Assembly (NCBI GenBank): GCA_964349485.1
Contig: CAYGGE010000001.1
Location: forward strand, 142,212-206,211
DNA from: an uncultured Candidatus Saccharibacteria bacterium
Lineage (GTDB): Bacteria; Patescibacteriota; UBA1384; CAYGGE01
DNA: 64,000 nucleotides
Reading direction: 5' to 3'
Part shown: in pieces, positions 22,302-47,130 of the stretch
How positions within the stretch are numbered: the stretch's first letter is position 1
How the letters are laid out: the number at the start of each line of letters is the position of its first letter
Made by a program: the position numbers and the translations under genes
The notes under the pieces: model-generated
Told to the model about the DNA's origin: nothing
The model's input: only the letters and a program-made list of their open reading frames with translations
The model's database searches: none

Positions 22302-25196
22302 CTACCTCCCCGCCGGTATTAAGACGGCATCGATAACAATTTTGTTACGACCGGTGATATATACTTGTTGGGTAGAGTTGGCGTAGCCTATCTTCGAGAT
22401 AGTGACAGTATAAGGCCCTGGTTTAAGGTTCTTGAAAGTTGCTTGCGTTCCACTAGCTGACGTTGTGGCCCCGTCTTCGTCGGCAGATGTATCTGCAGGT
22501 CCAGCTTCGACGGCAGTGTTTGCGGTCAACGCTTGCTGGTCGGTGGCAGCAGTCGACAGAATTCGTACAGAAGCCCCAGCAATCTCCTTGCCTAGGGCCG
22601 CTGGGTTAGTTCCCCCAGGCTCAAAGGCCCGGACTGTTGCGGTATATTTGCGACTTGCTGGATCGAATAGATCAGCGTTGCTGGCTAAATTAAGATTAAT
22701 TTCGGCATTATCACCGTAGCCACGAGTGAAAACCGTCTCGACTACATGCTTTTTATTGTAGGCGAAGTTGGTGATGCCGCTATAGGTTGCGTTTCCCCGG
22801 ACTGGCTTAAAGTAGCGGACAAGGTCCTGGGTTGTGGGAAACGCTTCACCTCGCCAAGTATTGTAAAACGAACTGTTAGCAGGGCCCGCAAACTCAATTG
22901 GTAGGTAGCCGATGCCGTTAGCTGGGAAAATAGACTGGCGGGTATTGTTGGGTGAAGCGACTGCTAGTAGCATGCCATCTTGGTTTAAGCCAGCGAAATG
23001 ATAGCGACCTTGGCTGTCTGTAATGTCCACAAACTCCTTAAAACCACTACCTTGGCTTGATCGGGAGAAATTTAAGGCACGCACCGTCACACCGGCTACA
23101 GGTTGATTATTTCGAGTGATTACACCAGTGAGTGTGTTGGCGGGAGCGGTGATCGGTACCGGGTTCACGTCGATACTGAGGTAATTGCCAGAGGAGTAGG
23201 TGTATGTACTAAGCGGTGGGGATGTGATAGTTTTGCTACCACTATGCCAGATGAAATCTCCCGTCGACTTGGCGTTTATAATTATTGGCTTGCTCGTATC
23301 ATTGAGTATAGTAGCGAAAAAAACACCGGCAGAGAATCTATCGGTCTGACTAATCGAATAGGCAACTTCATTAGGGTTGGTAGTGCCGCTACCGAAACTG
23401 ATCATCCGACCATAGCCACCACGTAGGGGTACTGGGGGAAAATCGGTGTCACTCGCATTGTAGATAATCGCTCCGGCAAGTGGTACACGACTTTGGTTAT
23501 TTGAGCCTGCATTGTAAACACGACCATAAAACTCCTGGGTCTCATAATTACGAGTTAACTCTTGCCCAGGTTGAGTAAACTTGATGTACGCAAACTGAGA
23601 TGGCAATGAGCCAGATTGTAACCAGCTTTCTTTGACACCATTATCGAACATTTCATTTTCAATAAAGTATATACGATATGATTCGTTCAAGACTGTTGGT
23701 ATATCGGGAATCGAATATTGGCCTGTCACTGAGTTCGCATAGCCAGTTGCCAGAACAAGTGAATCTTTCTTCAAGATAACGCGAGTATTTTTAGGTCCTG
23801 TGCCACTTATCTTTGATTTGGCGCCTACGTACATCGAAATCGTATCTGCCTGATTGTCGCCGGCCTTCAAACTAGCAAACGAAGTGTAGGTTGACATGTG
23901 AGTTGGTGATCGAAAAATCAGGGTATAGGGCTGACCTTCGGCTGCACCGGTAATCGCGTATGAACCAGTTGCATCGGTTGTTGCCACAAGCTCAAGGGTT
24001 GATTGATAGTGATGATTTAACTGGCGAAAAACCTGGACTCCAGGAAGTGCCGCTTTCGTCAGTCCATCAATCGTTTCACCTTTTATCACCGCGGTTTTAG
24101 GGGCCGTTGAGGGATCGATGTACCGTGTTGTAATATTTAATGAGTTCAGTTTTGTTGGATCGGGAGTGAAATCTGACAAGGCTTGGACTGGTTTGGTGCC
24201 AGGGGGACTATAGTAACCAGGTGCAGGATACCTTACAGACACCGCAGTTGGTTTATTTTTCTCATGACCGATGAAGATATCGTATTTGCCATCAGTGTTG
24301 GTTGTTAATAGATCAACAAGTCCACCTGCATCTAAACTATAGAGCCTTGATGTAACATTGAACTTTGATGTTACTGTTTGAATTGCAGCGCTCGACAGCG
24401 TTCCGCTTTCGTCGGGCAGTAAGACTTTGCCCGATACTCGGCTAATTGCTGAAGCAACTTTCAATACACCAGTGTTAGCCGCAACTGAACTAGTATCAAA
24501 ATTAGCGATTACGAAATCTTTACCAAAGCTCGATCCATCACCAGAACGCCAACGGAAGAAAGCAGTATATTCACCATCCGGCAGATCGGCGACCGAATAG
24601 GTCATTTTATTTTGATTCGGTCTGCTGGCTTGAGCCGAAAAACCAACAAGGCCGTCTGAGCTTTCAATCAGGATGTGTGGCTGCCACTGTTCCATGGCAG
24701 TTACCAATAGGCTGTCACTGTACTCAATCGTTCCTTCTAGATTAATTGGTACACCGGGGTTTAGGCCAATCTCGCCGATATCCTTTAATTGGTCTCTGAC
24801 TGCAAATCCAGTCGGCACAATACTAGCTCGATAATTTGCCCCACCAACTTTGAGATTGGTTCCTGTTGTAAAAGGTATAGAACTACCGGTCTGGAGGATA
24901 GTCACACTAAAGCTAAAATTGCCCTGCGCATCGGCGGTTACGGTCTTAGCGTTGCCATTTGTGTTAGCACCTTCTGGCTGCAAGGTCCCCAATGGACCAG
25001 TTGCTACGTAGCTATACGACTTGCCGTAGGTGACAACTGCGCCGGGGATCGGCTGTCTAGTCGCTGAATTGACCACCCGTCCCTTGAAGCTAAAAACGTT
25101 TCGGCTGGTTGTCTGTTGGGCTACAGTCGATTCAACACCGAGCGAACTTAAACTGAGTACAGTGGCCAGTATGAGCAAGGAAAATTTCTGAATCAT
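22302..25196 (-). CDS. Large secreted cell-surface protein with repeated carboxypeptidase-regulatory-like / Cna-B-like beta-sandwich domains
   Basis: Signal peptide MIQKFSLLILATVLSLSSLG. Repeats like GRVVNSATRQPIPGAVVTYGK and ITGAAEGQPYTLIF. GGAGGGG RBS and a TTGACA-17-TACGAT promoter on the minus strand upstream. Confidence 0.6.
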   Translation of the reverse strand: MIQKFSLLILATVLSLSSLGVESTVAQQTTSRNVFSFKGRVVNSATRQPIPGAVVTYGKSYSYVATGPLGTLQPEGANTNGNAKTVTADAQGNFSFSVTILQTGSSIPFTTGTNLKVGGANYRASIVPTGFAVRDQLKDIGEIGLNPGVPINLEGTIEYSDSLLVTAMEQWQPHILIESSDGLVGFSAQASRPNQNKMTYSVADLPDGEYTAFFRWRSGDGSSFGKDFVIANFDTSSVAANTGVLKVASAISRVSGKVLLPDESGTLSSAAIQTVTSKFNVTSRLYSLDAGGLVDLLTTNTDGKYDIFIGHEKNKPTAVSVRYPAPGYYSPPGTKPVQALSDFTPDPTKLNSLNITTRYIDPSTAPKTAVIKGETIDGLTKAALPGVQVFRQLNHHYQSTLELVATTDATGSYAITGAAEGQPYTLIFRSPTHMSTYTSFASLKAGDNQADTISMYVGAKSKISGTGPKNTRVILKKDSLVLATGYANSVTGQYSIPDIPTVLNESYRIYFIENEMFDNGVKESWLQSGSLPSQFAYIKFTQPGQELTRNYETQEFYGRVYNAGSNNQSRVPLAGAIIYNASDTDFPPVPLRGGYGRMISFGSGTTNPNEVAYSISQTDRFSAGVFFATILNDTSKPIIINAKSTGDFIWHSGSKTITSPPLSTYTYSSGNYLSIDVNPVPITAPANTLTGVITRNNQPVAGVTVRALNFSRSSQGSGFKEFVDITDSQGRYHFAGLNQDGMLLAVASPNNTRQSIFPANGIGYLPIEFAGPANSSFYNTWRGEAFPTTQDLVRYFKPVRGNATYSGITNFAYNKKHVVETVFTRGYGDNAEINLNLASNADLFDPASRKYTATVRAFEPGGTNPAALGKEIAGASVRILSTAATDQQALTANTAVEAGPADTSADEDGATTSASGTQATFKNLKPGPYTVTISKIGYANSTQQVYITGRNKIVIDAVLIPAGR

Positions 25197-26326: not shown

Positions 26327-26920
26327 CTAGATGCGCAGGAGGCGGTTGAGTTTGTCGGCAATGTCTTCTTCGACGTCGTGAGTTTCGGGGAGGAAGTGTT
26401 CAAGAAAGTCGCGGACTTTGTTGATATCCTGTTGAATTAACGGGATAACGACTGGTGCGCTGAAGCGCTCGGTCTTCTGCAAGTAGAGCCGTTTAACCTC
26501 AGTCTTCTCGAGGATCCAGAAGGTTTTCAGAGCGGAGAAAGGGATCAATTGACCTTTAAACTTGATACCCGTCGCGGTAAAAGTCACTGACGAGACGGCT
26601 GGCTCTTGGTGGGCCAGTCGGTACATGACGATCGCACCCAAGATGACAATTATAGCGACAATGTACTGGCTAGTCAAGAGAAAGATGGTCGTTAAAGCCA
26701 GGGTGACCGCCGCCATAATCGGAAACCACCACGAGTTTTTCTTATAATGCAGAAACTCTGGCGCTTTCCAGGAAAGAATTGTGTGTTCAGACGATTTTTC
26801 AGTCACTTTACCCCGCTTATATGTATTTACCGTAACGTAGTCATTCCAACCTGTCAATGTTGGGCTTCCCAATTTTTTAGAAAGCGTTTTTAATGGTATA
26901 CTCAAATCATGATTAAGCAA
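26327..26920 (-). CDS. Hypothetical two-TM membrane protein (possible bacterial PH-like domain); start uncertain
   Basis: The track ORF begins at a TTG that overlaps the divergent thioredoxin ATG by 12 nt, so the true start may be internal. No family motif was recognised. Confidence 0.3.
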   Translation of the reverse strand: MLNHDLSIPLKTLSKKLGSPTLTGWNDYVTVNTYKRGKVTEKSSEHTILSWKAPEFLHYKKNSWWFPIMAAVTLALTTIFLLTSQYIVAIIVILGAIVMYRLAHQEPAVSSVTFTATGIKFKGQLIPFSALKTFWILEKTEVKRLYLQKTERFSAPVVIPLIQQDINKVRDFLEHFLPETHDVEEDIADKLNRLLRI

Positions 26921-27409
26921 GATCTTGTTAAAAATGGTAAATACATTTTAGGTATTGCTCTTCTTTTGATTGTCTTCGGTTATGTTATGGCGAATAATGG
27001 TGAAAAACCAAGCGAAAGTAACAATACTTCGCCATTACCTACATATACAACAGCTGTCTTGTCTGGTGAAAACGGGACAGAAGCGACAGTGTCAACCAAA
27101 CCCGGTACTTATGTCGCTTACGATGAGGCTTCATTCTTAAAAACCGCCGGCTCGAAAATCTTATTCTTTCATGCGCCATGGTGTCCTCAATGTCGCGCAC
27201 TAGAGGCCAGCATAAACTCTGGGACGATCCCGACAGGAGTCACTATCAGTAAAGTTGACTACGACAGTCACCAAGCGTTACGCAAAAAATATGGTGTCAC
27301 GATTCAGACGACACTGGTACTGTTAGATGACGAAGGGAAGCTAATAAAAAGGTATGTCGCCTACGATGAGCCAACACTTGCCTCAGTAGTAAAAAATCTC
27401 TTACCATGA
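26909..27409 (+). CDS. Membrane-anchored thioredoxin-fold thiol:disulfide oxidoreductase (ResA/TlpA-like)
   Basis: N-terminal TM plus FFHAPWCPQCRAL (WCxxC active site). Confidence 0.75.
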   Translation: MIKQDLVKNGKYILGIALLLIVFGYVMANNGEKPSESNNTSPLPTYTTAVLSGENGTEATVSTKPGTYVAYDEASFLKTAGSKILFFHAPWCPQCRALEASINSGTIPTGVTISKVDYDSHQALRKKYGVTIQTTLVLLDDEGKLIKRYVAYDEPTLASVVKNLLP

Positions 27410-28146
27410 TTCTAATCATTGCCTCACTGTTTGCCGGTATCCTGACTGTCGCCGCACCTTGCATCTTACCTCTCTTGCCTGTAGTGATCGGAGGATCATT
27501 AAGTTCCACTGCTGGTGTCTCAAAACGCGCTGCCTTCACTATCGCTGCCAGTTTGGCTATTTCAATTATCTTTTTTACTCTAATATTGAAGACGACCACT
27601 GTCTTACTCGGGATTTCAACTACCGTCTGGCAGTCAATCTCTGGTCTAATAATAATCCTATTTGGATTACAGTTGCTCTTTCCAAGTCTCTGGGAACAGG
27701 TGAGCGCAAGTTTCAAATTACAGGGGATTTCGGGAAGCTGGTTAAGCCGATCTAGTATATCTAAAGGCTGGTGGCGTGACGTCCTGCTTGGAGCAGCGCT
27801 CGGACCCGTTTTTAATAGTTGTAGCCCGACTTACGCCCTGCTTGTGGCCGCTATTTTGCCAGTTTCGTTTGGCCAAGGTCTTGCCGCTCTTTCAGCCTAT
27901 GCTCTTGGACTTTCCGGAACCTTACTGGCGATCAGTCTATTAGGACAACGGGTACTTCTTCCGCTAAAACTGGCTAGCAATCCGGAGGGTTGGTTTCGCA
28001 GAGGATTAGGGATAGTGCTGATATTGACTGGTCTAATGATTATTTTCGGCCTCGACAAGCAATTACAAGCCTATATCCTTAACCAAGGCTGGTACGATTC
28101 AATCGGCGGTATTGAAAAAGTATTTCTTAATCGGCTTAAAAGTTGA
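27406..28146 (+). CDS. ccdA: Cytochrome c-type biogenesis protein CcdA / DsbD-family transmembrane electron transporter
   Basis: LTVAAPCILPLLPV (first conserved Cys) and FNSCSPTYALL (second Cys), with six TM segments. ATGA-coupled to the thioredoxin gene. Confidence 0.75.
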   Translation: MILIIASLFAGILTVAAPCILPLLPVVIGGSLSSTAGVSKRAAFTIAASLAISIIFFTLILKTTTVLLGISTTVWQSISGLIIILFGLQLLFPSLWEQVSASFKLQGISGSWLSRSSISKGWWRDVLLGAALGPVFNSCSPTYALLVAAILPVSFGQGLAALSAYALGLSGTLLAISLLGQRVLLPLKLASNPEGWFRRGLGIVLILTGLMIIFGLDKQLQAYILNQGWYDSIGGIEKVFLNRLKS

Positions 28147-28298: not shown

Positions 28299-28397
28299 AA
28301 TCTGAGGCTATCATACCTGAAAAGGTTTTATTTTTCCAGAGCTTTAGCTTGAATTACTGGTCATTTTTACCTATACTATGAAAGCGAAGGAGCAGTG

Positions 28398-28712
28398 ATG
28401 AAGAGCGGTCAAACAAAGCTTAGCTGGGTTGGATTGGTTGGACTGCTCGTCGTGCTGTTCGTAATTGCACTCATTGGTCTACAGTCTAAAAAAGGCCCTC
28501 TCTTGCCAACCTCCACCTATGCACCGGCCATCCCTGAATCGAATCAGGTCTCAAAAGACTTTATCGATCGAGCATCGGCCAAGGCTGAGGCAGGGGATTT
28601 CCGAGGGGCGGTTACGATCCTCGACCAAGCCATCGCCGATTCACCGGACGACCAAAACTTGAAATTAACCAAAGAATATTACGAAAACGAAGCAGTGCGT
28701 CATGGGCAGTAG
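28398..28712 (+). CDS. Small TM-anchored protein with a TPR-like helix pair, hypothetical
   Basis: ATG 28398 with a GGAG RBS (the track ORF begins at GTG 28395). TM LSWVGLVGLLVVLFVIALIGL. Confidence 0.4.
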   Translation: MKSGQTKLSWVGLVGLLVVLFVIALIGLQSKKGPLLPTSTYAPAIPESNQVSKDFIDRASAKAEAGDFRGAVTILDQAIADSPDDQNLKLTKEYYENEAVRHGQ

Positions 28713-29973
28713 GTTTCTTTGTAGGACTATCAGTATACTTTTGCTGGCGCTTTTTCTAGCCCCGGCCGGGGCTTTGGCCATCAATAAAAACGCGATTATT
28801 AGCCAAGAAGAGACCGCCTACAATAACGTTAAAGCTTCAGATATCCAGGCTTACCTCAATGCGACTGGCTCACAGCTGGCTAGCTATGCCATCCCCGAGT
28901 CGTTTGAAGTGTACTATCCAATTGGCAAGGGGCAGTGGGATAAGGTTGAGGTGCGTCAGGAGTGGCAGTCTAACCTAGAACTTGAAAAATATTATGGCAA
29001 GTCGGTAGCTGAATTGCTTGCCGATTGGGCAGGAACTGATCGTGCTAATCGAAAGCCATCGAGCCCAGGGAAGATGAATCCTTTGATCGCTCTAGCAACC
29101 ATGGATAAAGAGAGTGCTAGTGTCACTGGCTCATATAAAAATATCATTGTGACGGAAAAGCCGATCACTATGAGTTGGCTGATGGGTTACGGCTTCAACG
29201 GCAAGATGGATAGCTGTATAAAGAACGGGGACTGTGATATCAATGCTGATGGCGAATTTAACGATGCCGACAAGGAATACATGCGTCAACGCGCCATATG
29301 GTACGGTGGCCCAGGGATGCAGATCGTTGAAGGTACGGCCGCGCTGAAGCGATGGTCGACCAATCCAGAAGCGAGCAGTACTTGTGAGGGCGGTGGTTGG
29401 GAGCGACTGATCGTTAGCGGTGAGTGTTTGCATCTAGAAAACAGCATTACTCATGCCCTTTATAGGTATACACCCAACTTTTCCGGTAATGAGCTGTTTC
29501 TCAGACTCTATGATAAAATTAAGGGAGCTTTTCCTTTTCCAGCTGTTGCCGAGCCCAATGAAAGCGACAATGACACTGCCGAGTATACACTCGATACGTA
29601 CAATACCAATTTTACGATCACCGGCTATAAGGCACCGAACAACAAGGCCGTTTTCTCTGGCAATGTCTTGGCCGATACTGGAACTACCAACTGGGAGCTG
29701 ACCTTCCAGCCGCGAGTCGGCAAGCACATGTATAGCGTTGACTACCAGCGATCAGATGGCTCGGTCATCAACCATAAATATTTTTACGTCAACAAACGAA
29801 AAGTGGGCGATATCAACAATAGCGGCGGAGTCGATATCCAAGATCTCTCCATCCTGGCTACTTACTGGGGACATACCGATCCACCTGACCCCATGACTAA
29901 CCTTAATCCGAGTGTAGATAATGAGGTCAATATCCTAGATCTCTCGAACTTAGCCGCAAACTTTGAAAAATAA
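28702..29973 (+). CDS. Secreted protein with a C-terminal type-I dockerin domain
   Basis: Signal peptide MGSRFLCRTISILLLALFLAPAGALA. Two dockerin Ca-binding repeats, GDINNSGGVDIQDLSILATYW and VDNEVNILDLSNLAANF. Confidence 0.65.
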   Translation: MGSRFLCRTISILLLALFLAPAGALAINKNAIISQEETAYNNVKASDIQAYLNATGSQLASYAIPESFEVYYPIGKGQWDKVEVRQEWQSNLELEKYYGKSVAELLADWAGTDRANRKPSSPGKMNPLIALATMDKESASVTGSYKNIIVTEKPITMSWLMGYGFNGKMDSCIKNGDCDINADGEFNDADKEYMRQRAIWYGGPGMQIVEGTAALKRWSTNPEASSTCEGGGWERLIVSGECLHLENSITHALYRYTPNFSGNELFLRLYDKIKGAFPFPAVAEPNESDNDTAEYTLDTYNTNFTITGYKAPNNKAVFSGNVLADTGTTNWELTFQPRVGKHMYSVDYQRSDGSVINHKYFYVNKRKVGDINNSGGVDIQDLSILATYWGHTDPPDPMTNLNPSVDNEVNILDLSNLAANFEK

Positions 29974-29996
29974 TCAAGAAAGTAAGGGGTGGGAAC

Positions 29997-31253
29997 GTGA
30001 AATATATTGTAAAACTCTCTCTGGCGTTGGTGATCGCCATGGCGCCGGTTGCAGTAGCTACAGTCGCAGCAGCAGGCATTGGAAGTAGTAACGGTGGCTC
30101 TCGTGTGGTTGGTGAGAAGTTTACCATCACTGTTTCCGCCAGTGGGGCGACTTTTGACAGTCTGCAAGGCACCATTTCGGTTTCTGGCCCCGTCGAAATC
30201 GTCAGTTTTTCTCCCGGGAGCGCCACTTGGCTGCCGGGAAAGTCACCGGCCGATGGTCAACAGTTTGTGGGTATCATTGCCCCTACAACCAGTGCGGTAG
30301 TGGCGAGGATCACTTTAAGAGGGACCAAGGAAGGTTCTGGTTCAGTTAATGTAAGTGGAGTTAAACTTGCCAGTAAGGGCGATATCGTCGGTACTGACGC
30401 CAATGGGTCGGGCTTTAAAATTGGTCGGGCTCCTGTACTGCCAGGCGGTGTTAATGTCAGCTCGGTGACACATCCCAAGCAAGACGAAGCCTATGAAAAC
30501 CGAAGTATCAATCTTTCTTGGGAAAAGGCTGCTGGGGTAAGTGAATTTTCCTACATTCTCGATCAGGCGGCGGACACGACACCAGCCACTTCAAAATCTG
30601 ATGGAGCCGGAACGACGGTAACTTTCGACGGCAAAGATATTGGGACATACTATTTCCATATTCGGGCTAAAAATGGTGACGGCTGGGGTGGCACAACCCA
30701 CTTTAAGATTACAATTAAGGAGCCTGATCCTAAGATTGAATCGACCCTTGCCAAACCTGTCGTCAAAGACATCCGTAAAATGAAGACCTTTTCTACCGAT
30801 CTCGTAGAGGGTACGGCAACCGGAATCGAGCTTTCCGGAACTGGGCAACCTGGTTACAGCATGAACGTAAAATTTAGCCCAACACTCGGCGAGACTGGTG
30901 AACTGGTCACCGTGACAGCCGACGAGAGTGGAGCTTGGGTGCTTTCGCTTGAAAAACCAGTTAAAGCCGGTTTTTACAGTGTGACTGTGCAAGGCCAACA
31001 GGAAAAAGTCCTGACTCCAATGTCAAAACTTAAGTACTTTGAAATCAGTTTAGCCAAGGCTGGCAATGTCGAGTTCATCGACGAAGGCGATGCAGTACCG
31101 ACTCCCGGGCCCAGTCCGACCTCATCGGCCAGCAAGGGCTCAGCGACCGCACTTCGACCACTTCTCTTAGCGCTAGCCGTAGCCATCGTCGGTACAGGTG
31201 CTGTCGCGGGTATCGTTCAGACTCGTCGACGTCGAAAAGCCCGGATGACCTGA
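29997..31253 (+). CDS. Surface-anchored protein with a putative N-terminal cohesin-like domain, an FN3/Ig-like region and a C-terminal TM with RRRRKARM tail
   Basis: GTG start with a strong AAGGGGTGG RBS. Signal peptide. VVGEKFTITVSASGATFDSLQGTISVSGPVEIVSF...ARITLRGTKEGSGSVNVSGVKL is a cohesin-like beta-sandwich. The C-terminus is LLLALAVAIVGTGAVAGIVQTRRRRKARMT. Confidence 0.5.
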   Translation: MKYIVKLSLALVIAMAPVAVATVAAAGIGSSNGGSRVVGEKFTITVSASGATFDSLQGTISVSGPVEIVSFSPGSATWLPGKSPADGQQFVGIIAPTTSAVVARITLRGTKEGSGSVNVSGVKLASKGDIVGTDANGSGFKIGRAPVLPGGVNVSSVTHPKQDEAYENRSINLSWEKAAGVSEFSYILDQAADTTPATSKSDGAGTTVTFDGKDIGTYYFHIRAKNGDGWGGTTHFKITIKEPDPKIESTLAKPVVKDIRKMKTFSTDLVEGTATGIELSGTGQPGYSMNVKFSPTLGETGELVTVTADESGAWVLSLEKPVKAGFYSVTVQGQQEKVLTPMSKLKYFEISLAKAGNVEFIDEGDAVPTPGPSPTSSASKGSATALRPLLLALAVAIVGTGAVAGIVQTRRRRKARMT

Positions 31254-31371: not shown

Positions 31372-32328
31372 ATGCGCATACTCATCGCCGGTGGGGCTGG
31401 TTTCTTAGGTTCTCATCTTGCCGACCGTTACGCCGAAAACTACGACGTGGTAATTGTCGATAATTTGTCGACCAGTCGGAGTGATACTATTGACCATCTG
31501 ACGAGCAATCCGAAAGTTACGTTTGTGAAAGCAGATATTACGAAACCATTGCCTGCATCGGTAACCGATCTCCACTACGATGTCATTGCGAACTTGGCGT
31601 CACCTGCCAGTCCACCAGCTTATCAACGGTTAGCGATACCGACGCTTCACGTCGGCTCAATCGGGGTGGAACAGCTCCTCGAATTGGCTAGGAAAAATAG
31701 CGCCCGTTTTTTTCATGCCTCAACCAGTGAAGTCTATGGTGATCCCTTAGTTCATCCGCAAAAAGAGAATTATAATGGTAATACTAACTGTTACGGCCCG
31801 CGGGCCATGTACGACGAGAGCAAACGCTACGGCGAGGCGCTGATTTACGTCTATCGGCAACAATATCAGATGAACACGGGTATCATCCGTATCTTCAATA
31901 CCTATGGTCCACGCATGGACCCTAAGGATGGTCGCGTGGTCTCTAATTTTATCGTTCAGGCCCTTGAAGGCAAATCACTCACCGTGTATGGCGATGGTCA
32001 GCAGACACGGAGTTTTTGCTATGTTAGCGACCTGATCGACGGCATGGTGCGGTTTATCGATTCAAACGAAGAAGGGCCGATGAATCTTGGCAATCCAACC
32101 GAGTTTACGATCAGTGAGTTAGCTGAAAAAGTGAGAACCTTAGTCGGTACCAAACTACCGATCGTCCGTCAGCCGATGCCGGTCGATGATCCTTTACAAC
32201 GTAAACCGGATATTAGCTTAGCTAAAGAGCGTTTAGATTGGGAACCACAGATTCCGCTTGAGGAAGGGCTGGCGAAAACGATAGATTATTTCCGTCATCA
32301 GTTGACACTGACGAAAGGTGAACAATGA
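31372..32328 (+). CDS. uxs: UDP-glucuronate decarboxylase (UDP-xylose synthase, UXS family SDR)
   Basis: MRILIAGGAGFLGSHL (Rossmann), NTNCYGPRAMYDESKRYGE (UXS-type YxxxK region). GGAG RBS. Confidence 0.8.
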   Translation: MRILIAGGAGFLGSHLADRYAENYDVVIVDNLSTSRSDTIDHLTSNPKVTFVKADITKPLPASVTDLHYDVIANLASPASPPAYQRLAIPTLHVGSIGVEQLLELARKNSARFFHASTSEVYGDPLVHPQKENYNGNTNCYGPRAMYDESKRYGEALIYVYRQQYQMNTGIIRIFNTYGPRMDPKDGRVVSNFIVQALEGKSLTVYGDGQQTRSFCYVSDLIDGMVRFIDSNEEGPMNLGNPTEFTISELAEKVRTLVGTKLPIVRQPMPVDDPLQRKPDISLAKERLDWEPQIPLEEGLAKTIDYFRHQLTLTKGEQ

Positions 32329-33629
32329 AAATTACCATGATTGGTGGAGTTGGATATGTCGGTCTAGTGAGTGGGGCTTGTTTGGCCGACCTTGGTAACG
32401 ATGTGATCTGCACCGGCCGCGACCAACAGAAGATTGATGGCCTGAAACTCGGCAAGAGCCCGATCTATGAACCAGGCTTGGAAGATGTCCTTGAGCGCAA
32501 TATTAAGGCCGGTCGACTTAAATTTACGACCAACAATACAGAAGCTATCCAAGCATCGGATATCATTTTCTTGACCGTCGGTACGCCGTCAGCCGCCGAT
32601 GGCTCGGCTGATCTGTCGCAGATCGACACCGCTGCTATGGAAATAGCGGAGGCTTTAAAGGCAGAGCAAACCCAGCGTTACCGAGTTATTGTCAACAAGA
32701 GTACCGTACCGATCGGCACTGGTGAGCGTGTTCGCAAGATTATCGCCGACATCTACGACGGCCCTTTTGACGTGACATCGAACCCAGAATTTTTACGTGA
32801 AGGTTCAGCCGTCCAGGATTTTTCTGTACCTGACCGAGTAGTGATTGGGGTAGAAAGTGAACAAGCCAAACAGATCCTCAATGAGCTTTACATTCCACAA
32901 AACGCACCAATTCTTTTCACCAACTTAAAGACCGCTGAGATGATTAAGTATGCCGCTAACTCTTATCTGGCGACTTCAATTTCGTTCATGAACGGGTTGG
33001 CCCAACTTTGTGAAGTAGTTGGAGCCGACGTAACCAAAGTGGCGCAAGGGATGCGTTACGATCAACGAATCGGTCAGAAAGCTTTTCTCGATGCTGGTAT
33101 AGGTTACGGTGGGGCTTGTTTTCCGAAGGACGTCAAAGCCTTAAAGCATATCAGCGAAGAGCATGGTGCGCCCCTAGCATTACTTGAAGTGGTTGAGGCA
33201 GTTAATAAGCGCCAGAAGATCGCTCTGGTGCCAAAAATTGAGACAGCGCTCAATGGGCTTTCGGGTAAAACAATCGCTGTCTGGGGTCTAGCCTTCAAGC
33301 CTAATACCGACGACATGCGTGAGGCGCCAAGTGTCGCGTTGATCAATGCCTTGCAAACTAAAGGGGCAAAAATCAATGCCTATGACCCAGTGGCGATGGA
33401 TAACGCCCGTCAGTATCTCCCTGACATCAACTATTCGACTAGTCCACTCGAGGCCACTAGTGGGGCTGATGCGCTGGTTATCGTCACTGATTGGTCAGAA
33501 TTCAAGGCAATTGAACTAACCTCGATCAAGCAATCACTAAGTCGACCGCTGGTCTTTGATGGACGCAATATGTACGATCCAGCGACCGTCAAAGAGGCGG
33601 GTTTTGATTACATCTCGATTGGTCGATAG
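32325..33629 (+). CDS. ugd: UDP-glucose 6-dehydrogenase
   Basis: MKITMIGGVGYVGLVSGACLADLG...GGACFPKDV (catalytic Cys). 434 aa. Confidence 0.85.
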   Translation: MKITMIGGVGYVGLVSGACLADLGNDVICTGRDQQKIDGLKLGKSPIYEPGLEDVLERNIKAGRLKFTTNNTEAIQASDIIFLTVGTPSAADGSADLSQIDTAAMEIAEALKAEQTQRYRVIVNKSTVPIGTGERVRKIIADIYDGPFDVTSNPEFLREGSAVQDFSVPDRVVIGVESEQAKQILNELYIPQNAPILFTNLKTAEMIKYAANSYLATSISFMNGLAQLCEVVGADVTKVAQGMRYDQRIGQKAFLDAGIGYGGACFPKDVKALKHISEEHGAPLALLEVVEAVNKRQKIALVPKIETALNGLSGKTIAVWGLAFKPNTDDMREAPSVALINALQTKGAKINAYDPVAMDNARQYLPDINYSTSPLEATSGADALVIVTDWSEFKAIELTSIKQSLSRPLVFDGRNMYDPATVKEAGFDYISIGR

Positions 33630-33654
33630 AACGATAGCACTCACAACAAGAAAT

Positions 33655-33686
33655 CTGTTGAGCTTCGTCTCCAGCTTGCTATAATA
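33655..33686 (+). promoter_or_regulatory. Candidate promoter (TTGAGC-16-TATAAT), about 7 nt upstream of ATG 33694
   Basis: TATAAT at 33681-33686. The gap to the start codon suggests a leaderless mRNA. Confidence 0.4.
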
Positions 33687-33693
33687 AGACTAT

Positions 33694-35100
33694 ATGAAAA
33701 TGCTACAGCAAAAAGGAGTCCTGTTTTGGTTTGTTCAAATCATTTTTTTTAGTGTCTTAGCTTATCTGGCGTTCCACTATCGGCGCTTAACCGACTTCCC
33801 AATCGGTGACGACCCGGCGGCCCACATCCAAACGATTAAAGATTTTTCCTATACTGGCCTATTGCAGACCAGTTATCCACTGCCATTACTCGTCTTTAAA
33901 TTTTTTCATGACCTGACACGCTTACCTCACTACGAGGTTTTTGTCTCACTAATCTCAACTTTCCTGCTGGCTGCTGCTTGCATGCTCTATGCTTTTATCT
34001 GGCGAGTCACTGGTGATTGGCGAACCGGTGCAGTTGCCGCAGTGCTGTTTGTGGTCGCTCGGTGGGTTAACGATGGCTTACGAATGGGCTTGCTAGCTGA
34101 AGTTTTTGGCTGGTCGGTGCTTTTTGCCGCTCTGTTTGCTTTTAGCATGAAGCATAAGTGGCTGACTATCGCCACGAGTGGCTTGCTACTCATCTCTCAT
34201 CCTTTTGGCTTCACGATCTTTGCCCTGATAGTCTTAATGTCCGGTTTGGTCAGTCTTTATAGGGGGAGCGAGGATGAACGTCAATTCGTCATCCAACTAT
34301 TTAAGATCTATGGTGTGCTGTTCCTCCTCGGGATCGTGGTTCGGCCGGGACTATTTGTCGGGGTTTTGAATTTTGCGCCCGGTGACCCAACAGACTGGGG
34401 CAACCGGACCCTTTGGCAGATTATTGCCGGAGATGATATGAGGCGTGCTCTGGTGCCGTTCCTGGCATTGGTTGGACTGTTCGTCGCGCTCAAAGATTGG
34501 GAGAAACCATATATTAGAGCCTCATTTTTCTTACTGGTGATCGGTCTATTCTTGTCCTTAAATCATATCCTTGGTATTGGCTTTATCTCTTTTCGGTTTT
34601 ATGTCTATCTTGAGATGGGCATCGCTATCTTTGCCGCCTTAGCGTTAGTCGAATCAGTTCGACTGCTCCGACTGCCTGTGCTGGTTAGCGGTGCAATCCT
34701 TTTGGTATTGACTGCCATGTTGGTCTTGCCAAACTATAAGGTCAATCAGGAGATCGGACATTGGCAGGCGACCAATCCCGATGCCAAAGCGGTCATGTTG
34801 CCGACCGATCGTGCGGCCCTTGACTGGATAAAAGCCAGCACTAAAGAGAACGATGTGATTATTGTTCCAGCGCGCTACATGCTTTGGGTTATCGCTTATG
34901 CTGATCGACGCCATGTGATCACCAGGCCCGAAGTTTACGATAACGATGACTATACCCGTCACTTAGCCGAGCGGACTGAGTCACCGATCCAAGGTGATTA
35001 CATCTATTATGGCCAAGGGCAGAGTGAGCCATACCAGCTAGCTGAACACCATCGTTTGGTATATACCAAAGGCGGGGTTCGTATCTGGAGGAAAGAATGA
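33694..35100 (+). CDS. Polytopic integral membrane protein, hypothetical (possible polymerase or GT-C-like)
   Basis: 468 aa with 12 or more hydrophobic helices and no soluble catalytic motif recognised. Sits inside the glycan locus. Confidence 0.4.
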   Translation: MKMLQQKGVLFWFVQIIFFSVLAYLAFHYRRLTDFPIGDDPAAHIQTIKDFSYTGLLQTSYPLPLLVFKFFHDLTRLPHYEVFVSLISTFLLAAACMLYAFIWRVTGDWRTGAVAAVLFVVARWVNDGLRMGLLAEVFGWSVLFAALFAFSMKHKWLTIATSGLLLISHPFGFTIFALIVLMSGLVSLYRGSEDERQFVIQLFKIYGVLFLLGIVVRPGLFVGVLNFAPGDPTDWGNRTLWQIIAGDDMRRALVPFLALVGLFVALKDWEKPYIRASFFLLVIGLFLSLNHILGIGFISFRFYVYLEMGIAIFAALALVESVRLLRLPVLVSGAILLVLTAMLVLPNYKVNQEIGHWQATNPDAKAVMLPTDRAALDWIKASTKENDVIIVPARYMLWVIAYADRRHVITRPEVYDNDDYTRHLAERTESPIQGDYIYYGQGQSEPYQLAEHHRLVYTKGGVRIWRKE

Positions 35101-35462
35101 TTGAGATTAGGAAAAGTTTGATTGCTACGCTCTTTATTGCTAGCACCTTAATGATCTATGTCATGCCAGAATTGCTGCAATTATCAGTTATTCTTGCGTA
35201 CATATCGGTTGGTATTACTTTGGTTCTTGAACCAAAAAGTGCTTATCGAGCAGCCCTATTGGTTATCGGAGCGTTATATGTCTGTATTGTGTTTGTTGGT
35301 CAGATCAGTCCATATCCCTGGCTTATTGATCAGCGAGTGGCCTTTCCTGTCGCCGTTGCACTGACACTAGCTCTACTTTTTGGGACAATTGGACTCATTC
35401 TCTTTCTACCGTATCTTGTTCAGCGACTAGTCGCCAAGTTTAGGTCCGTGCGGAGAAAGTAG
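35097..35462 (+). CDS. Small 3-4 TM membrane protein, hypothetical
   Basis: 121 aa, hydrophobic, with a C-terminal KFRSVRRK tail. ATGA-coupled. Confidence 0.35.
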   Translation: MIEIRKSLIATLFIASTLMIYVMPELLQLSVILAYISVGITLVLEPKSAYRAALLVIGALYVCIVFVGQISPYPWLIDQRVAFPVAVALTLALLFGTIGLILFLPYLVQRLVAKFRSVRRK

Positions 35463-35572
35463 TCGACCATATCGCTGGTATACATCATTGTTTTTGACCT
35501 GTAAGATCGGTATACTGCTGATTAGCGATAACTAACGAATAATCGTGTTTAATCAGTATCAGAGGATGATCG

Positions 35573-36691
35573 TTGAAGATATTAATGATAGTCCCGTATT
35601 TTGCGGAGTCTGATCGCTGGATGATCTCCGGTCAGAAGACCGCCCATGCCCTTTCGAAAGAGCACCAAGTGACCGTCCTCACTACGGGGAGAGAGCCTGG
35701 CGTACGGCAGTTGGGCCCGAACCTCACCGTTCATCGATTGAAGGATATTTTTCTTCCTGATCCAATCAATTATTCACTTATTCCGGGACTATTTAAGGCC
35801 GTTCGGTCGATTGTCAAGTCGCAGAAACCCAATATCTGTCTGATAAATAAGCACATGTTTCAAACAGCTTGGACGGTTTGGACCGTGAAGCGCCTGGGTG
35901 TGCCGGTTTTGGTCCAGACTGACACATTCCCTGGAATTAGTTGGTTCCCCAGACGCAAGTTTGTCCGTCTAGTCATGTGGCTATACGCCCGCCTGATCGG
36001 TGTGCCAATACTACGGGCGGCCGATAAAGTGATCCTTCTCCATGAAGGTCTGGTAGCGACGGCTAAACAACTTGGTCTGAATTACCAAGTAATTCATAAC
36101 GGTATTGATCTCGATCATCTGGCTACGTTAAAGGCTCCACGCGATCTAGTTAAGCCGAAAGATGAGGTTTGGGTCGGCTATGTTGGCCGGCTTGAGTCGA
36201 TCAAAGGTTGGTACGATTTGGCGGCTGTTGCCAAAGAGCTTGCTGACCAGTATCCTAAAGTAAGGTGGTTATTCGTTGGTCAAAATAAAGTGGCGTCAAC
36301 TCGAATAAATGCCGAATTTAATCATCCAAATTTGATATTCTTAGGTCAGCGGACCGATGCGCTTGGTATCTATCAACTTCTCGATGTCTTTGTTTTACCC
36401 TCTTATTCTGAGGGCTTACCTAACGCCTTGATGGAAGCGATGGCCAGTGGCCGATGTTGCCTGTCGTCAGCTGTTGGTGGAGTAAAGTATCTGTTAAAAG
36501 ATGAGCAGTCCGGTTTGTTGTTCCAGCCGGGTAATCGTCAGCAATTGACTAAACAACTGAAGCGAGTTCTGTCTGACACTCAGTTACGCGCTAAGCTTGG
36601 CAGTCAGGCCAGAAAAACGATCGAACAGGACTATAATCTTAGTAAGACTACCGATCAACTTAATCAACTATTGGCGGAATATGTCTCTTAG
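35573..36691 (+). CDS. Glycosyltransferase family 1 (GT4)
   Basis: SEGLPNALMEAMASGRCCLSSAVGG motif. Probable TTG start with an AGAGGA RBS 6 nt upstream; the alternative ATG is at 35585. Confidence 0.8.
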   Translation: MKILMIVPYFAESDRWMISGQKTAHALSKEHQVTVLTTGREPGVRQLGPNLTVHRLKDIFLPDPINYSLIPGLFKAVRSIVKSQKPNICLINKHMFQTAWTVWTVKRLGVPVLVQTDTFPGISWFPRRKFVRLVMWLYARLIGVPILRAADKVILLHEGLVATAKQLGLNYQVIHNGIDLDHLATLKAPRDLVKPKDEVWVGYVGRLESIKGWYDLAAVAKELADQYPKVRWLFVGQNKVASTRINAEFNHPNLIFLGQRTDALGIYQLLDVFVLPSYSEGLPNALMEAMASGRCCLSSAVGGVKYLLKDEQSGLLFQPGNRQQLTKQLKRVLSDTQLRAKLGSQARKTIEQDYNLSKTTDQLNQLLAEYVS

Positions 36692-38873
36692 CATCGCAAC
36701 TATTACAAAGAGCTATAGACAACTCACTCTGCGATACCAGTGGTTAGCTTATTATCTTCTCTTCAGTCTACTGGCCGCAGGTCTCTTCGTTCTCAGCTTG
36801 AGGCTGGCTACCAATGGTTTTCCGTACCTTCTTCACTTGGTAGGCCTGGTAGTATTTTTTATTCCTGGGCTGACCATTACACTTGCGGTTGAGCAGTTAG
36901 TTGGTGCCCCGCAGTCCTTATTTCGACTATTTCTCTGGGGCTTTATTTGCTCTCTGACCTTCAATCCGACAGCCATTTTTATCCTCGGGCAACAGTTGGA
37001 TCGCCCGGCCATGACAAACGTGCTTTTTCTGTTTTCGATCTGGTGGCTCGCTGTTTTAGGCATCCTCACAATATTCTATATGATCAAAGCGAGTCCAACC
37101 GGTCTCACTTTTCCACGTTTCCCGACCTATTCTCGAAGCGTCTTATGGGTAATGCTGGTCAGTTTGGGTGTGTTAGCGATTCACTTTATCCTATATCCTT
37201 ATATTCCTGAGGTAGATGGTTATGCCAACATCTTATCGGTTGAACGACTTAATGATTTTCCCAAGGAACTGAACTCTGAACCAAGATTTCTCTACCTATT
37301 GCTTACCCAGATCCTCTCCGTACTTTCGGCGATTTCACCATACTGGCTGTATAAATTGGTTCTCCCGCTATTCAATCTAGTTCCCCTACTCGTCTTACTT
37401 CGGATAAGCCAACCAATTAAAATAGCTTGGCTACGTTGGCTATTAGTCCTATCCTTGTTTTCGGCTCCTGTTGTAGTAGAGGAGATGGTGATTACTCGTC
37501 CGCAGTCAATCTTCTTTCTGACTCTTCTACCAATTTGCTATCTTTTAGGAAAATACTCACTCGAGCGTCGTCCGGCAAGTAATATTTTCTGGCTGGTCAC
37601 TCTAGCCGCGGTGGTTGTCTTAGGTAGTGGTATCCACGGCATGTTCATCCTAGTCGCCAGCCTTATTCCATGTGCCATATTGGTCTATTACTGGCAAAGC
37701 ATTAAACGATCTCCACTCGATGCAGTCATCGTTGGCCTAGCGGTACTCATCGCTATCTATCCTTGGTTAGCTAAGCTTGATTTTCTTGGCTTTATCATGG
37801 GGACCGGTCAATTAGTCATCAATATCATCCGGGAATCACATTTTGAGTTTTGGTTTATCGACAACTATACAAATGTCGATGGTAATTCGATCGGTTGGCC
37901 TGGCTGGTCAAGTTTATACTACTACGGCTATAATACCGGACTGTTTTTACCTGTCGGTATAGGTGTAGCGCTTTGGCTAGCAGTTAGAGTGCGGAATATT
38001 TCGCCTAGACCTTGGGTTCTTTCTTGGCCAATCATTGGTGCCTTGCTAATCTTTTTTGCTGTAGCTGAGATATTCCCCCGTTTTGGATTTGCCTATTTAC
38101 CTGATCGTGCTTGGCTATTCATTAGTGCTTTGACGCCGATAGTTTTAATGTTCGTCTACCAGTTTATAGGCAGTGAACAGTTGACACGTCAGGTTCGTAT
38201 CCTACTGATCGGCAGTCTGGTGCTGTCGATCGTGGGTGGGTGGTTGACTACCTACTTAAAACAGGGTTGGGTTAACCGCAATGAATATAAGACACTGCCG
38301 TTTATCCAAAAGGAATTGCCTGAAAATTCGTTGATTCTTACTCAGTCAGGTAACAGAGTCTTGATTAAGTATTTTGCTCGGCGCTACTTCCTGGCTCCAC
38401 CAGGAGAAGTATTCTACGACACGGATATATCAAGTCTTGACACCTTTGTTCGTGATACGTTGTCGGAAGATCCGACACAGAAAATTGAGCAATCACCGGC
38501 CGATATCGAATCCAAGCGTCGGGATAGTCGACAGTCGATCAACGAGCTCCTCTCTAGTTTTTATGTCACTACGGATGCAAACTCAAGCCTTGAAGTGATT
38601 AAGCAATTAGAGGATCGACTTAAAGAATATAGCAAACTAGTAATCAAGGTTGATCAAAACGACGCTAACCAATCAGTAAAGATTGAGAAGGAGCGAGATT
38701 ATAAGACCCCAATCTATCTGCTTTACTCATTTAATCGCTTTAATGGGCTATATGGTATGCGCGATTGGTGGTTAAAGTCGAACTTTCAGGGTGCTAACCT
38801 CGATAAGTTTACCGAGAATTACCCCCTTATCTATGATCAAGATGGGGTGATGATCTGGGAGATTCGAAAGTAA
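36681..38873 (+). CDS. Large GT-C-fold-like membrane protein (YfhO/ArnT/PMT-like architecture), putative polyprenyl-P-sugar-dependent extracytoplasmic glycosyltransferase
   Basis: Start taken at ATG 36681 (MSLSIATIT), overlapping the preceding stop. About 13 or more TM helices plus a roughly 250-aa C-terminal soluble domain. No WWDYG oligosaccharyltransferase motif. Confidence 0.4.
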   Translation: MSLSIATITKSYRQLTLRYQWLAYYLLFSLLAAGLFVLSLRLATNGFPYLLHLVGLVVFFIPGLTITLAVEQLVGAPQSLFRLFLWGFICSLTFNPTAIFILGQQLDRPAMTNVLFLFSIWWLAVLGILTIFYMIKASPTGLTFPRFPTYSRSVLWVMLVSLGVLAIHFILYPYIPEVDGYANILSVERLNDFPKELNSEPRFLYLLLTQILSVLSAISPYWLYKLVLPLFNLVPLLVLLRISQPIKIAWLRWLLVLSLFSAPVVVEEMVITRPQSIFFLTLLPICYLLGKYSLERRPASNIFWLVTLAAVVVLGSGIHGMFILVASLIPCAILVYYWQSIKRSPLDAVIVGLAVLIAIYPWLAKLDFLGFIMGTGQLVINIIRESHFEFWFIDNYTNVDGNSIGWPGWSSLYYYGYNTGLFLPVGIGVALWLAVRVRNISPRPWVLSWPIIGALLIFFAVAEIFPRFGFAYLPDRAWLFISALTPIVLMFVYQFIGSEQLTRQVRILLIGSLVLSIVGGWLTTYLKQGWVNRNEYKTLPFIQKELPENSLILTQSGNRVLIKYFARRYFLAPPGEVFYDTDISSLDTFVRDTLSEDPTQKIEQSPADIESKRRDSRQSINELLSSFYVTTDANSSLEVIKQLEDRLKEYSKLVIKVDQNDANQSVKIEKERDYKTPIYLLYSFNRFNGLYGMRDWWLKSNFQGANLDKFTENYPLIYDQDGVMIWEIRK

Positions 38874-40762: not shown

Positions 40763-40765
40763 CCT

Positions 40766-41881
40766 ATGAACCCTAAAAGACGGATCGTCCACCTCATTAT
40801 CTCGTTAAATAGTGGTGGTTGTGAGAATATGCTGCTTCGAACCTTGCCGCATCTTACCACCGACTTTGTGATAACCGTGGTTACTCTTAAAGAGCCAGGT
40901 CAGCTGGCACAGTCTATGATCGGGCAGGGCATTGAAGTGGTCAATGTCAATTGGCAAGGCTTTTTTGATTTTGCTGGGCTTCGTAGGTTAAAATTGATTA
41001 TTCAAGAGCTGAAGCCAACCCTCATTATCACCTATCTCTTCCACGCTGACATGATTGGCCGACTTTACTTGCAATCACGACTGGCGGTGCCGATCATGCC
41101 ATTTTTGCGAACTACCCACAATTATCCTCGCTATTGGCCTGCTTTGGTTTTAGAGTGGCTGACCAAGGGAACCGTACGGCACTATCTGGCCTGCTCGGAG
41201 GCGGTGAAGCAATATTACCACCAGGTGATTGGCGTGCCAGAACGAAAGATTACGGTTATCCATAATGGAATTGACGCTGACCGATTTGAGACAGCTAATG
41301 GTCAAGTGGTGCTACAGGAGCTTCAGCTACCAAGCAAGCGCTTGGTCTTTACCTGCGTCGCTAACCTGGCTCGTAATAAGGGACACCGCTATCTTTTTGA
41401 GGCTTTTGAGTCGACATTTGCTGGGCATCCCGAAGCGATTCTGCTAGTTGTGGGTGCAGGTCGTCAGGAGTCTAATCTAAAAGCTCAAGTGAGCAAGTAT
41501 CAGTCACGTGATAATATATACTTTTTGGGTAGGCGTGATGATATACCGAAACTGCTGGCGATAACTGACATTTTTGTCTTACCTACTCTATTTGAGGGTA
41601 TGTCGAATGCCCTCTTAGAGGCACTGGCGGCTAAACTCGCAGTGATTACAACTGACATTCCTCAAAATAAGACTGTGATTACCGATGGTCAAACCGGATT
41701 ACTTGTACCAGTTCGAGATGCCAAAAAATTGGCGTCAGCGATGCTCGCTTTAGCTAACGATCCAAATCGGCGTAAAGATTTTAGTCAAAACGCCTCGAAG
41801 CTTGTCAGAACTGATTTTGATCTAGATACTATTGTTAAACAATGGAAAGAGGTACTTAATCGTTATGCCAAGAAGTCATGA
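40766..41881 (+). CDS. Glycosyltransferase family 1 (GT4)
   Basis: FEGMSNALLEALAAKLAVITTDI motif. Confidence 0.8.
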   Translation: MNPKRRIVHLIISLNSGGCENMLLRTLPHLTTDFVITVVTLKEPGQLAQSMIGQGIEVVNVNWQGFFDFAGLRRLKLIIQELKPTLIITYLFHADMIGRLYLQSRLAVPIMPFLRTTHNYPRYWPALVLEWLTKGTVRHYLACSEAVKQYYHQVIGVPERKITVIHNGIDADRFETANGQVVLQELQLPSKRLVFTCVANLARNKGHRYLFEAFESTFAGHPEAILLVVGAGRQESNLKAQVSKYQSRDNIYFLGRRDDIPKLLAITDIFVLPTLFEGMSNALLEALAAKLAVITTDIPQNKTVITDGQTGLLVPVRDAKKLASAMLALANDPNRRKDFSQNASKLVRTDFDLDTIVKQWKEVLNRYAKKS

Positions 41882-43503: not shown

Positions 43504-43508
43504 AAATA

Positions 43509-45047: not shown

Positions 45048-45055
45048 AAGGAACA

Positions 45056-47129: not shown

Positions 47130-47130
47130 C

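Follow-up and report, generated by a model that had tools for sequence, protein, structure and literature searches.

A probable non-cellulosomal cohesin–dockerin display pair encoded by adjacent genes in Patescibacteria

Gene Pair and Domain Organization

The 64,000-nucleotide stretch of DNA analysed here (the window) belongs to contig CAYGGE010000001.1 (positions 142,212 to 206,211 of the forward strand) of an uncultured Candidatus Saccharibacteria bacterium (assembly GCA_964349485.1) and has a GC content of 45–50%. Two adjacent genes of this window, designated A and B, encode a secreted protein with a C-terminal dockerin and a membrane-anchored protein whose N-terminal domain is predicted to fold as a cohesin, and it is proposed below that the two proteins probably form a surface display pair. 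Docking between cohesins and dockerins is best known from cellulosomes. An initial annotation, made from the sequence, had described A and B as adjacent open reading frames (ORFs) encoding a minimal pair of this kind, and both ORFs are present as it described them. The two products are "hypothetical" proteins, and their family is found only in Patescibacteria, Berkelbacteria and metagenome-assembled genomes (MAGs) of the unclassified "bacterium" category. The genes and their parts are as follows, where aa denotes amino acids.

28702-29973, + strand: gene A, secreted dockerin-bearing putative cargo protein, 423 aa, ATG start
28702-28779, + strand: signal peptide of A, residues 1–26, with predicted cleavage between ALA and INK (sequence reading and hydropathy scan)
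28783-29550, + strand: body of A, residues 28–283, an uncharacterised extracellular domain and putative enzyme with invariant Glu137 in the motif ...NPLIALATMDKESAS...
29557-29790, + strand: Ig-like / Fn3-like spacer module of A, residues 286–363 (β-strands of the structural model at residues 295–365; Foldseek)
29791-29970, + strand: dockerin of A, residues 364–423 (Pfam, PDB profile, structural model and sequence)
29809-29844, + strand: Ca2+ loop 1 of the A dockerin, residues 370–381
29899-29940, + strand: loop 2 of the A dockerin, residues 400–413
29984-29993, + strand: Shine-Dalgarno-like AAGGGGTGGG, 3 nucleotides (nt) ahead of the GTG of B (sequence reading)
29997-31253, + strand: gene B, predicted membrane-anchored cohesin-like display protein, 418 aa, GTG start
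30072-30446, + strand: N-terminal cohesin-like β-sandwich of B, residues 26–150 (structure prediction and Foldseek; no PF00963 match)
30447-30731, + strand: FN3-like module of B, residues 151–245, with the signature SSxHPDQ...YFHIRAxNxDGWG (weak fn3 and Y_Y_Y matches)
30732-31046, + strand: Ig-like module of B, residues 246–350, conserved across the B family (weak Big_13 and Big_6 matches at residues 273–333)
31047-31157, + strand: Pro/Ser/Thr-rich linker of B, residues 351–387 (sequence reading)
31158-31250, + strand: C-terminal transmembrane (TM) helix of B, about residues 388–408, and basic tail TRRRRKARMT, residues 409–418 (hydropathy scan and sequence)

In the order of its modules, B agrees with the initial annotation, which had placed FN3/Ig-like modules behind the N-terminal domain and a TM helix with an RRRRKARM tail at the end of the protein. 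Homologs of B number more than 197, all from Patescibacteria MAGs, are about 410–470 aa long and retain the TM helix and the basic tail, and a precomputed PF00041 annotation covers the FN3-like module in several of them; A-type proteins number in the hundreds. Both A and B begin with Sec-type signal peptides. The signal peptide of B, its single TM helix and its basic tail, predicted to be cytoplasmic in line with the positive-inside rule, suggest that B is a type-I membrane protein. A Pfam scan and inspection of the sequence found no LPXTG or SLH element at its C-terminus, ...SATALRPLLLALAVAIVGTGAVAGIVQTRRRRKARMT; the missing LPXTG argues for a plain type-I membrane anchor, and sortase anchoring was rejected for the same reason. 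The spacer module of A, which is missing from a subset of A homologs, is matched by Foldseek to the Fn3-like modules of Clostridium thermocellum CbhA (3pe9, E 1.6e-4).

The Dockerin of A

The dockerin consensus segment consists of a D-x-N-x-D-G-x-x-D/N-x-x-D Ca2+ loop followed by a helix. Two tandem EF-hand-like loop-plus-helix segments of this type, as expected of a type I dockerin, are present at the C-terminus of A, which reads GDINNSGGVDIQDLSIL...NLNPSVDNEVNILDLSNL, and the second loop deviates from the consensus. The first loop is formed by D370-N372-S374-D378-D381, with Ser at a position where Asp is usual. The second segment, NLNPSVDNEVNILD, is atypical: its loop can be read as 12 residues long and deviating at position 3, or as carrying a 2-residue insertion relative to several relatives, in which the canonical DLNSDGTVDILD is found. 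In the AlphaFold2 (AF2) model of A (predicted local distance difference test score, pLDDT, 93.9), short helices at residues 379–387 and 411–419 lie where the dockerin helices belong.

Pfam Dockerin_1 (PF00404) matches residues 369–418 of A over model positions 2–53 of 57 with an E value of 3.8e-4, and the score of 21.0 bits lies below the gathering score of 22.9 bits. Among PDB sequences, A best matches the Cel5A dockerin of C. cellulolyticum (2vn6_B, E 0.013). The signal is stronger in the family: Dockerin_1 is found at E ≤ 1 in 29 of the 30 A homologs, with a best value of 4.5e-10, and 14 of the 30 bear a precomputed PF00404 annotation. When a profile of the A family was compared with solved dockerins, E values ran from 5e-7 to 3e-5, from 2y3n_B (5.4e-7) and 4fl4_A (8.8e-7) through 2vn6_B, and 2jnk_A was also among the dockerin matches (E 0.013 in one search and 0.001 in another). 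Judged from these sequence comparisons, the dockerin assignment is secure at the level of the family. The "canonical duplicated type-I dockerin" of the initial annotation thus stands as a duplicated dockerin; the word canonical has to be qualified, given the Ser of loop 1 and the atypical loop 2.

Predicted Cohesin-Like Fold of the N-Terminal Domain of B

The N-terminal domain of B (residues 26–150), which begins with GEKFTITVSASGATFDSLQG..., was modelled by AF2 from an alignment of 55 fairly similar sequences with a mean column identity of 67%. The model is all-β, with a pLDDT of 93.4 and a predicted template modelling score (pTM) of 0.82, and all five models reach a pLDDT of at least 90. It agrees with the cohesin fold, a β-sandwich jelly roll of about nine strands and 125–150 residues. 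In a Foldseek search of PDB, ranks 1–11 were all cohesins, as were ranks 13, 14, 30, 31, 34 and 43. The top match was the non-cellulosomal cohesin of Archaeoglobus fulgidus (2xdh, E 7.4e-7, TMq 0.69), and the other leading matches were Ruminococcus flavefaciens ScaB cohesins and C. acetobutylicum CohA2, with 5n5p, 6kgf, 5aoz and 5m2o included. The matched cohesins span types I, II and III as well as the archaeal cohesin, type II being lower in the list. We read the domain as a presumably strongly diverged cohesin homolog or, in strict terms, as a domain of cohesin-like fold that takes the place of the cohesin in a conserved architecture. The cohesin β-sandwich that the initial annotation had placed at the N-terminus of B is therefore upheld by the predicted fold and its 11 top PDB matches, and fails at the level of the Pfam profile (PF00963, 0 of 55).

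Gene Linkage and Cargo Exchange

The genomic arrangement of the pair was surveyed with one genome per GTDB species, which gave 43 loci, and with hidden Markov models (HMMs) built for four segments of the pair: A body, Ig module, dockerin and B N-terminal domain. A dockerin ORF lies directly upstream of B on the same strand in all 41 species-representative loci that have a full B homolog, and no dockerin was found elsewhere in the surroundings of about 10 kb of these 41 loci. The distance from the end of the dockerin to the start of the cohesin-like domain is 81–575 nt, of which about 75 nt encode the B signal peptide. This adjacency is kept at sequence identities down to about 37–45% and through replacement of the cargo, and the same order of a dockerin gene followed by B also occurs on independent metagenome contigs.

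Replacement of the cargo is evident in two loci. In L019 (30-4739), B is preceded by two genes for Peptidase_C39_2 + He_PIG/Big_9 + Dockerin_1 proteins, and in L012 (1672-4989), the gene upstream of B encodes a 1,105-aa protein that has no A-type body; in both, the substitute cargoes have the Ig + dockerin tail that A has. An anchor that stays constant while the dockerin-tagged cargo beside it changes is the mark of a docking system. L028 contains two A-type genes in tandem. Two MAGs possess two anchor–cargo pairs each (L012 with L044, and L017 with L019), which raises the question of orthogonal specificities.

Distant Relatives with a Pfam-Recognizable Cohesin

A genome scan yielded two distant relatives that may connect B with accepted cohesins, namely L048 from a Patescibacteria MAG and L049 from a Ca. 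Kerfeldbacteria chromosome (CP181398.1). In both loci, a Dockerin_1 gene that exceeds the threshold (34.4 bits in L048, 32.4 in L049) is followed by genes for two TM-anchored proteins, the second module of which is the FN3-like unit of B (SSxHPDQ...YFHIRAxNxDGWG). One of their N-terminal domains passes Pfam Cohesin with 27.6 bits against a gathering score of 24.1, covering model positions 8–137 of 139, and another reaches 18.9 bits. In BLASTP searches, B matched the L048 proteins with E values of 2e-23 (37% identity, residues 105–246 of B) and 1e-6 (residues 102–245). The high-scoring segment pairs (HSPs) begin in the last third of the B N-terminal domain and run into the FN3-like module, which contributes most of the score; in one target, the HSP aligns to a stretch covered by Pfam Cohesin.

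These loci thus resemble A–B in having a dockerin gene and then a TM-anchored protein of the order N-terminal domain, FN3-like module with HPDQ...YFHIRAxNxDGWG, further sequence and TM helix, with 37% identity to B over 150 residues. They differ in that the N-terminal domain is recognizable by Pfam as a cohesin, in that there are two cohesin proteins per locus, and in that the dockerin is borne by a small Ig-repeat cargo in which the A-type body is missing.

Further genes of these two loci were also inspected. Ahead of the dockerin gene (L048:2347-3384, L049:1616-3572), one or two paralogs are encoded, secreted proteins about 310–345 aa long with a C-terminal TM anchor, and the one of these proteins that was scanned had no significant Pfam match; the paralogs suggest a larger surface-structure operon in Kerfeldbacteria-type loci. 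The second cohesin-like protein of each locus (L048:5406-7820, L049:5617-8154) has no PF00963 match and ends in CarboxypepD_reg after a multi-TM region. In the window, CarboxypepD_reg domains are repeated in a secreted protein of 964 aa that is encoded 3.5 kb upstream of the pair (22302-25196, - strand) and may be related to these CarboxypepD_reg-bearing proteins.

Co-variation of the Two Domains

Distance matrices of the modules were compared by a mirror-tree approach for 39 A–B pairs. The dockerin and the cohesin-like domain correlate with r 0.587, a value above those between the cohesin-like domain and the modules of its own polypeptide (0.267 for FN3 and 0.386 for Ig), and the partial correlation of the dockerin with the cohesin-like domain, controlled for FN3, Ig and the A body, is 0.43 (permutation p ~5e-4). 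Loop classes, counted by hand from the alignment, also tend to go together: a long "TWLPGK" loop of the N-terminal domain pairs with a 14-residue second dockerin loop, and a short one with the canonical 12-residue loop (18/5 versus 5/15).

The Body of A and the Polysaccharide Neighbourhood

The body of A belongs to a large family, with 3,189 representative clusters (50% identity) at E ≤ 1e-3, of which 749 remain at E ≤ 1e-10, that is characterized by the motif INPxVILxTLQKE[QS]SLI. Across 80 sequences, E137, Q207, T257 and P258 are invariant and K136, Y163, G203, Y254 and Y256 near-invariant; 83 longer homologs likewise show no variation at E, Q, Y, Y, T and P. Glu137 lies near the end of a helix in the AF2 model. 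Homologs combine the body with Ig-like, NPCBM_assoc, FG-GAP, ChW and CBM53 domains, and two are fused to a Peptidase_S11 (DD-carboxypeptidase) domain. The body itself had no match in Pfam, NCBIfam, PHROG, PDB sequence profiles, Foldseek-PDB or BFVD, the Foldseek query being full-length A and dominated by its Ig-like module. It had no match to a glycoside hydrolase or other CAZy-type Pfam family, and neither tblastn against phages and plasmids nor the gene neighbourhood of a homolog from a 3-Mb genome led to an identification. A also contains an invariant cysteine, C178, with further cysteines near it.

The genes around the pair are biosynthetic rather than degradative. Among 136 genes flanking A–B, 20 encode Polysacc_synt proteins (Wzx-type flippases), 17 Wzy_C proteins, 12 family 2 glycosyltransferases (GT2) and 9 GT1 enzymes, and across 40 loci the pair usually lies inside Wzx/Wzy-type polysaccharide loci. 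In the window, B is followed by a long co-directional cluster (31372-48096, + strand); among its first genes are those for an epimerase/dehydratase-family enzyme and for a dehydrogenase of the UDP-glucose/GDP-mannose family and, after two unannotated genes, one for a GT4 enzyme. The position of the single invariant Glu, close to a helix end in an extracellular domain encoded in envelope-glycan loci, suggests a glycan-cleaving enzyme. Such an activity, possibly lysozyme- or transglycosylase-like, is put forward tentatively, as an inference from conservation and neighbourhood that we hold to be possible and less likely than its opposite.

Two further features lie immediately upstream of A.

28349-28377, + strand: promoter-like site TTGAAT-17-TATACT ahead of the three-gene unit (consensus scan only, weak evidence)
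28395-28712, + strand: small membrane protein, 105 aa, with one TM helix and a TPR-like C-terminal half (ORF; weak TPR_9/TPR_19 matches)

The promoter-like site falls in a 250-nt gap preceding the 105-aa gene, the product of which has a hydrophobic segment at about residues 5–37. The 3' end of this small ORF overlaps the start of A by 11 nt, and the three genes therefore look like one transcription unit. Homologs of the small protein are found upstream of A in L007 and L004/L021, and small TPR_19 proteins recur upstream in other loci, including L015; the 105-aa protein may be a third component of the A–B system. Directly upstream (26909-28146, + strand), a secreted thioredoxin-like protein with a WCPQC motif and a translationally coupled multi-TM protein are encoded, a pair that looks like an extracytoplasmic thiol-disulfide system.

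Proposed Mechanism and Alternative Explanations

The following mechanism, which we regard as probable, is proposed for the display of A. The Pro/Ser/Thr-rich linker, the Ig-like module and the FN3-like module of B would form a stalk, with the cohesin-like domain at the end far from the membrane. A would be secreted and then caught non-covalently through binding of its Ca2+-dependent C-terminal dockerin to the cohesin-like domain of B, and this capture would hold the body of A at a set distance from the membrane and prevent its diffusion. The anchor would be generic and the cargo exchangeable, mostly an A-type body and, in some genomes, C39-like peptidases or another large protein. The body of A would probably be an enzyme acting on a cell-envelope glycan, either the Wzx/Wzy surface polysaccharide of the adjoining locus or peptidoglycan, and Glu137 could serve as the catalytic acid/base, which is the weakest step of the proposal. 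We infer, with a probability of roughly 0.7, that the modules of A and B dock and that the two proteins constitute a non-cellulosomal cohesin–dockerin display pair on the surface of a Berkelbacteria-like Patescibacterium, because the model of B has a cohesin fold, the dockerin gene adjoins B in 41 of 41 loci, relatives with the shared architecture carry a Pfam Cohesin, and the cargo is swapped while the dockerin is retained. The co-variation of the two domains, the predicted topology of both proteins, the polysaccharide neighbourhood and the DD-carboxypeptidase fusions of two body homologs speak for this account as well. The minimal display pair of the initial annotation, a dockerin protein and a tethered cohesin-like protein, is supported to this extent.

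Several results weigh against docking. PF00963 gave no match on B at E ≤ 1 and none on the 55 homologous N-terminal domains even at E ≤ 10; the cohesin profile search by which the initial annotation was to be checked therefore came out negative, and after this failed detection the description of B as a Pfam cohesin member was dropped and that of a cohesin-like fold kept. In the corresponding check of A with PF00404, the match given above falls below the gathering score (21.0 versus 22.9 bits), and the second Ca2+ loop of A is atypical. Searches of PDB sequence profiles with the B domain gave only nanobody noise. When its profile was aligned by hhalign with four Patescibacteria N-terminal domains, of which one passes Pfam Cohesin, one is sub-threshold and two have no match, the alignment ran end to end with a probability of 7.3% and an E value of 0.0049, which is not significant. 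Furthermore, β-sandwiches recur in many families, and TM-scores of 0.6–0.7 at 11–18% identity are no proof of a conserved binding face. The mirror-tree and loop-class statistics are confounded by shared phylogeny, and the dockerin also correlates with the Ig module of B (partial r 0.35, p ~5e-4, 39 pairs), which the docking model leaves unexplained and which could reflect phylogeny or a second contact. As for the enzymatic role of the A body, it rests on the conservation pattern and the neighbourhood, and Foldseek gave no lysozyme-like or other match for this domain.

The lack of a sequence-level cohesin signal in B and the co-variation of the dockerin with the Ig module would also be compatible with an arrangement in which A and B are co-transcribed and serve the same envelope process with no cohesin–dockerin contact, the N-terminal domain of B being a generic Ig-like or adhesin sandwich and the dockerin of A, stabilised by Ca2+, having a different ligand, for example a surface glycan, the S-layer or some other protein. 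Weak Big_7 matches in 27 of the 55 N-terminal domains agree with this arrangement, and dockerins that have no identifiable cohesin are described as common outside cellulosome producers in the part of PMC9012536 that summarises Peer et al. 2009. It is nevertheless much the less probable account, as the best structural matches are specifically cohesins and not Big or CARDB domains, the equivalent domain of the distant relatives is a Pfam Cohesin, and the invariant element beside B is the dockerin and not the cargo body, as docking predicts. A prediction artefact, in which the cohesin-like fold is spurious and the adjacency reflects operon hitch-hiking with no specific relationship, could be suspected since the fold comes from a single AF2 modelling of fairly similar sequences; the agreement of all five models at a pLDDT of at least 90, together with an adjacency that persists in 41 of 41 loci, including sequences of about 37–45% identity and exchanged cargoes, makes this highly improbable.

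An episymbiotic function was also considered, in which B is primarily a host-contacting adhesin and A an enzyme that is brought to the place of contact and degrades the host cell wall, whether or not the two dock. Cultivated Patescibacteria are epibionts, C39-like peptidases are among the alternative cargoes, two homologs of the A body are fused to a DD-carboxypeptidase domain, and an essential envelope protein of Southlakia epibionticum contains a dockerin domain, for which its authors speculate about host-glycan targeting (PMC10633639). That protein (SEML1_0315) had been tried as an ortholog of A and was rejected: it is a 927-aa Ig-repeat protein beside a tRNA gene, with Ig-like domains only, no homology to A and no adjacent cohesin gene. 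In addition, A–B consistently lies among genes by which the cell makes its own surface polysaccharide, and this speaks for a role in maintaining its own envelope. A host-attack or attachment apparatus appears unlikely.

Comparison with Known Systems and Significance

To our knowledge, little has been explored of what cohesin–dockerin docking does outside cellulosomes, and for most "orphan" dockerins no partner has been assigned. A cellulosome comprises a multi-cohesin scaffoldin, a carbohydrate-binding module (CBM) and plant-cell-wall glycoside hydrolases; the pair described here has one cohesin-like domain and no CBM, and within the 64-kb window there is one dockerin, with no second dockerin and no second B-type N-terminal domain. 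The "one-enzyme cellulosome" of the initial annotation is accordingly retained only as an analogy, because no finding connects the pair with cellulose.

Outside cellulosomes, cohesin and dockerin modules are documented across the three domains of life, and binding has been shown for archaeal pairs, as stated in the sections of PMC9012536 that cite Peer 2009 and Haimovitz 2008, respectively. The A. fulgidus pair (2xdh and its dockerin partner) resembles A–B in having a single cohesin, a single dockerin and no cellulolytic machinery. In contrast, the cohesin of A–B is too divergent for PF00963 and would cap an FN3/Ig stalk that is anchored by a TM helix, the partner gene is always the immediate upstream neighbour, and the lineage is Patescibacteria. 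Anchoring scaffoldins with type I or III cohesins, such as OlpB/SdbA of C. thermocellum, ScaB/ScaE of R. flavefaciens and CohA2 of C. acetobutylicum CipA, share with B a cell-bound cohesin and a secreted, dockerin-tagged, interchangeable cargo. B differs from them in having one cohesin instead of an array and a C-terminal TM helix instead of an SLH or sortase anchor, and A–B has neither CBM nor cellulases and lies in a surface-polysaccharide neighbourhood. The NagH/NagJ pairs of C. perfringens (2ozn, 2jnk) likewise represent an extracellular cohesin–dockerin assembly unrelated to cellulose; unlike A–B, they are soluble glycan-active enzymes linked to each other by FIVAR-dockerin, are not membrane anchored and do not form a conserved gene pair. 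By analogy, A–B would work like a one-socket anchoring scaffoldin that is distinguished by its HMM-cryptic cohesin, TM anchor, strict gene pairing, cargo family and polysaccharide context. Among the papers available to the literature search, none was found on a cohesin–dockerin pair in Patescibacteria, the nearest being that on the Southlakia dockerin-domain protein (PMC10633639).

A partner missed by profile HMMs and revealed by its fold and strict adjacency suggests that many orphan dockerins in Patescibacteria, and perhaps elsewhere, have cryptic cohesins. The analysis also provides a concrete and testable pair of small domains (60 and 125 aa), linked to surface-polysaccharide loci, from a lineage whose surface biology is almost uncharacterised, and singles out a very large, so far uncharacterised family of extracellular domains that are probably enzymes. 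Divergent and possibly orthogonal cohesin–dockerin pairs would be useful parts for synthetic protein scaffolds. In a more speculative reading, which we consider doubtful, the body of A may represent the first known case of a new family of extracellular enzymes that cleave glycans, and it would be held at a fixed height on a cryptic cohesin stalk, where it remodels the cell's own Wzx/Wzy polymer or breaches the host wall, with orthogonal specificities in the genomes that carry two pairs. If true, this would amount to a minimal, programmable surface-display system in ultra-small bacteria.

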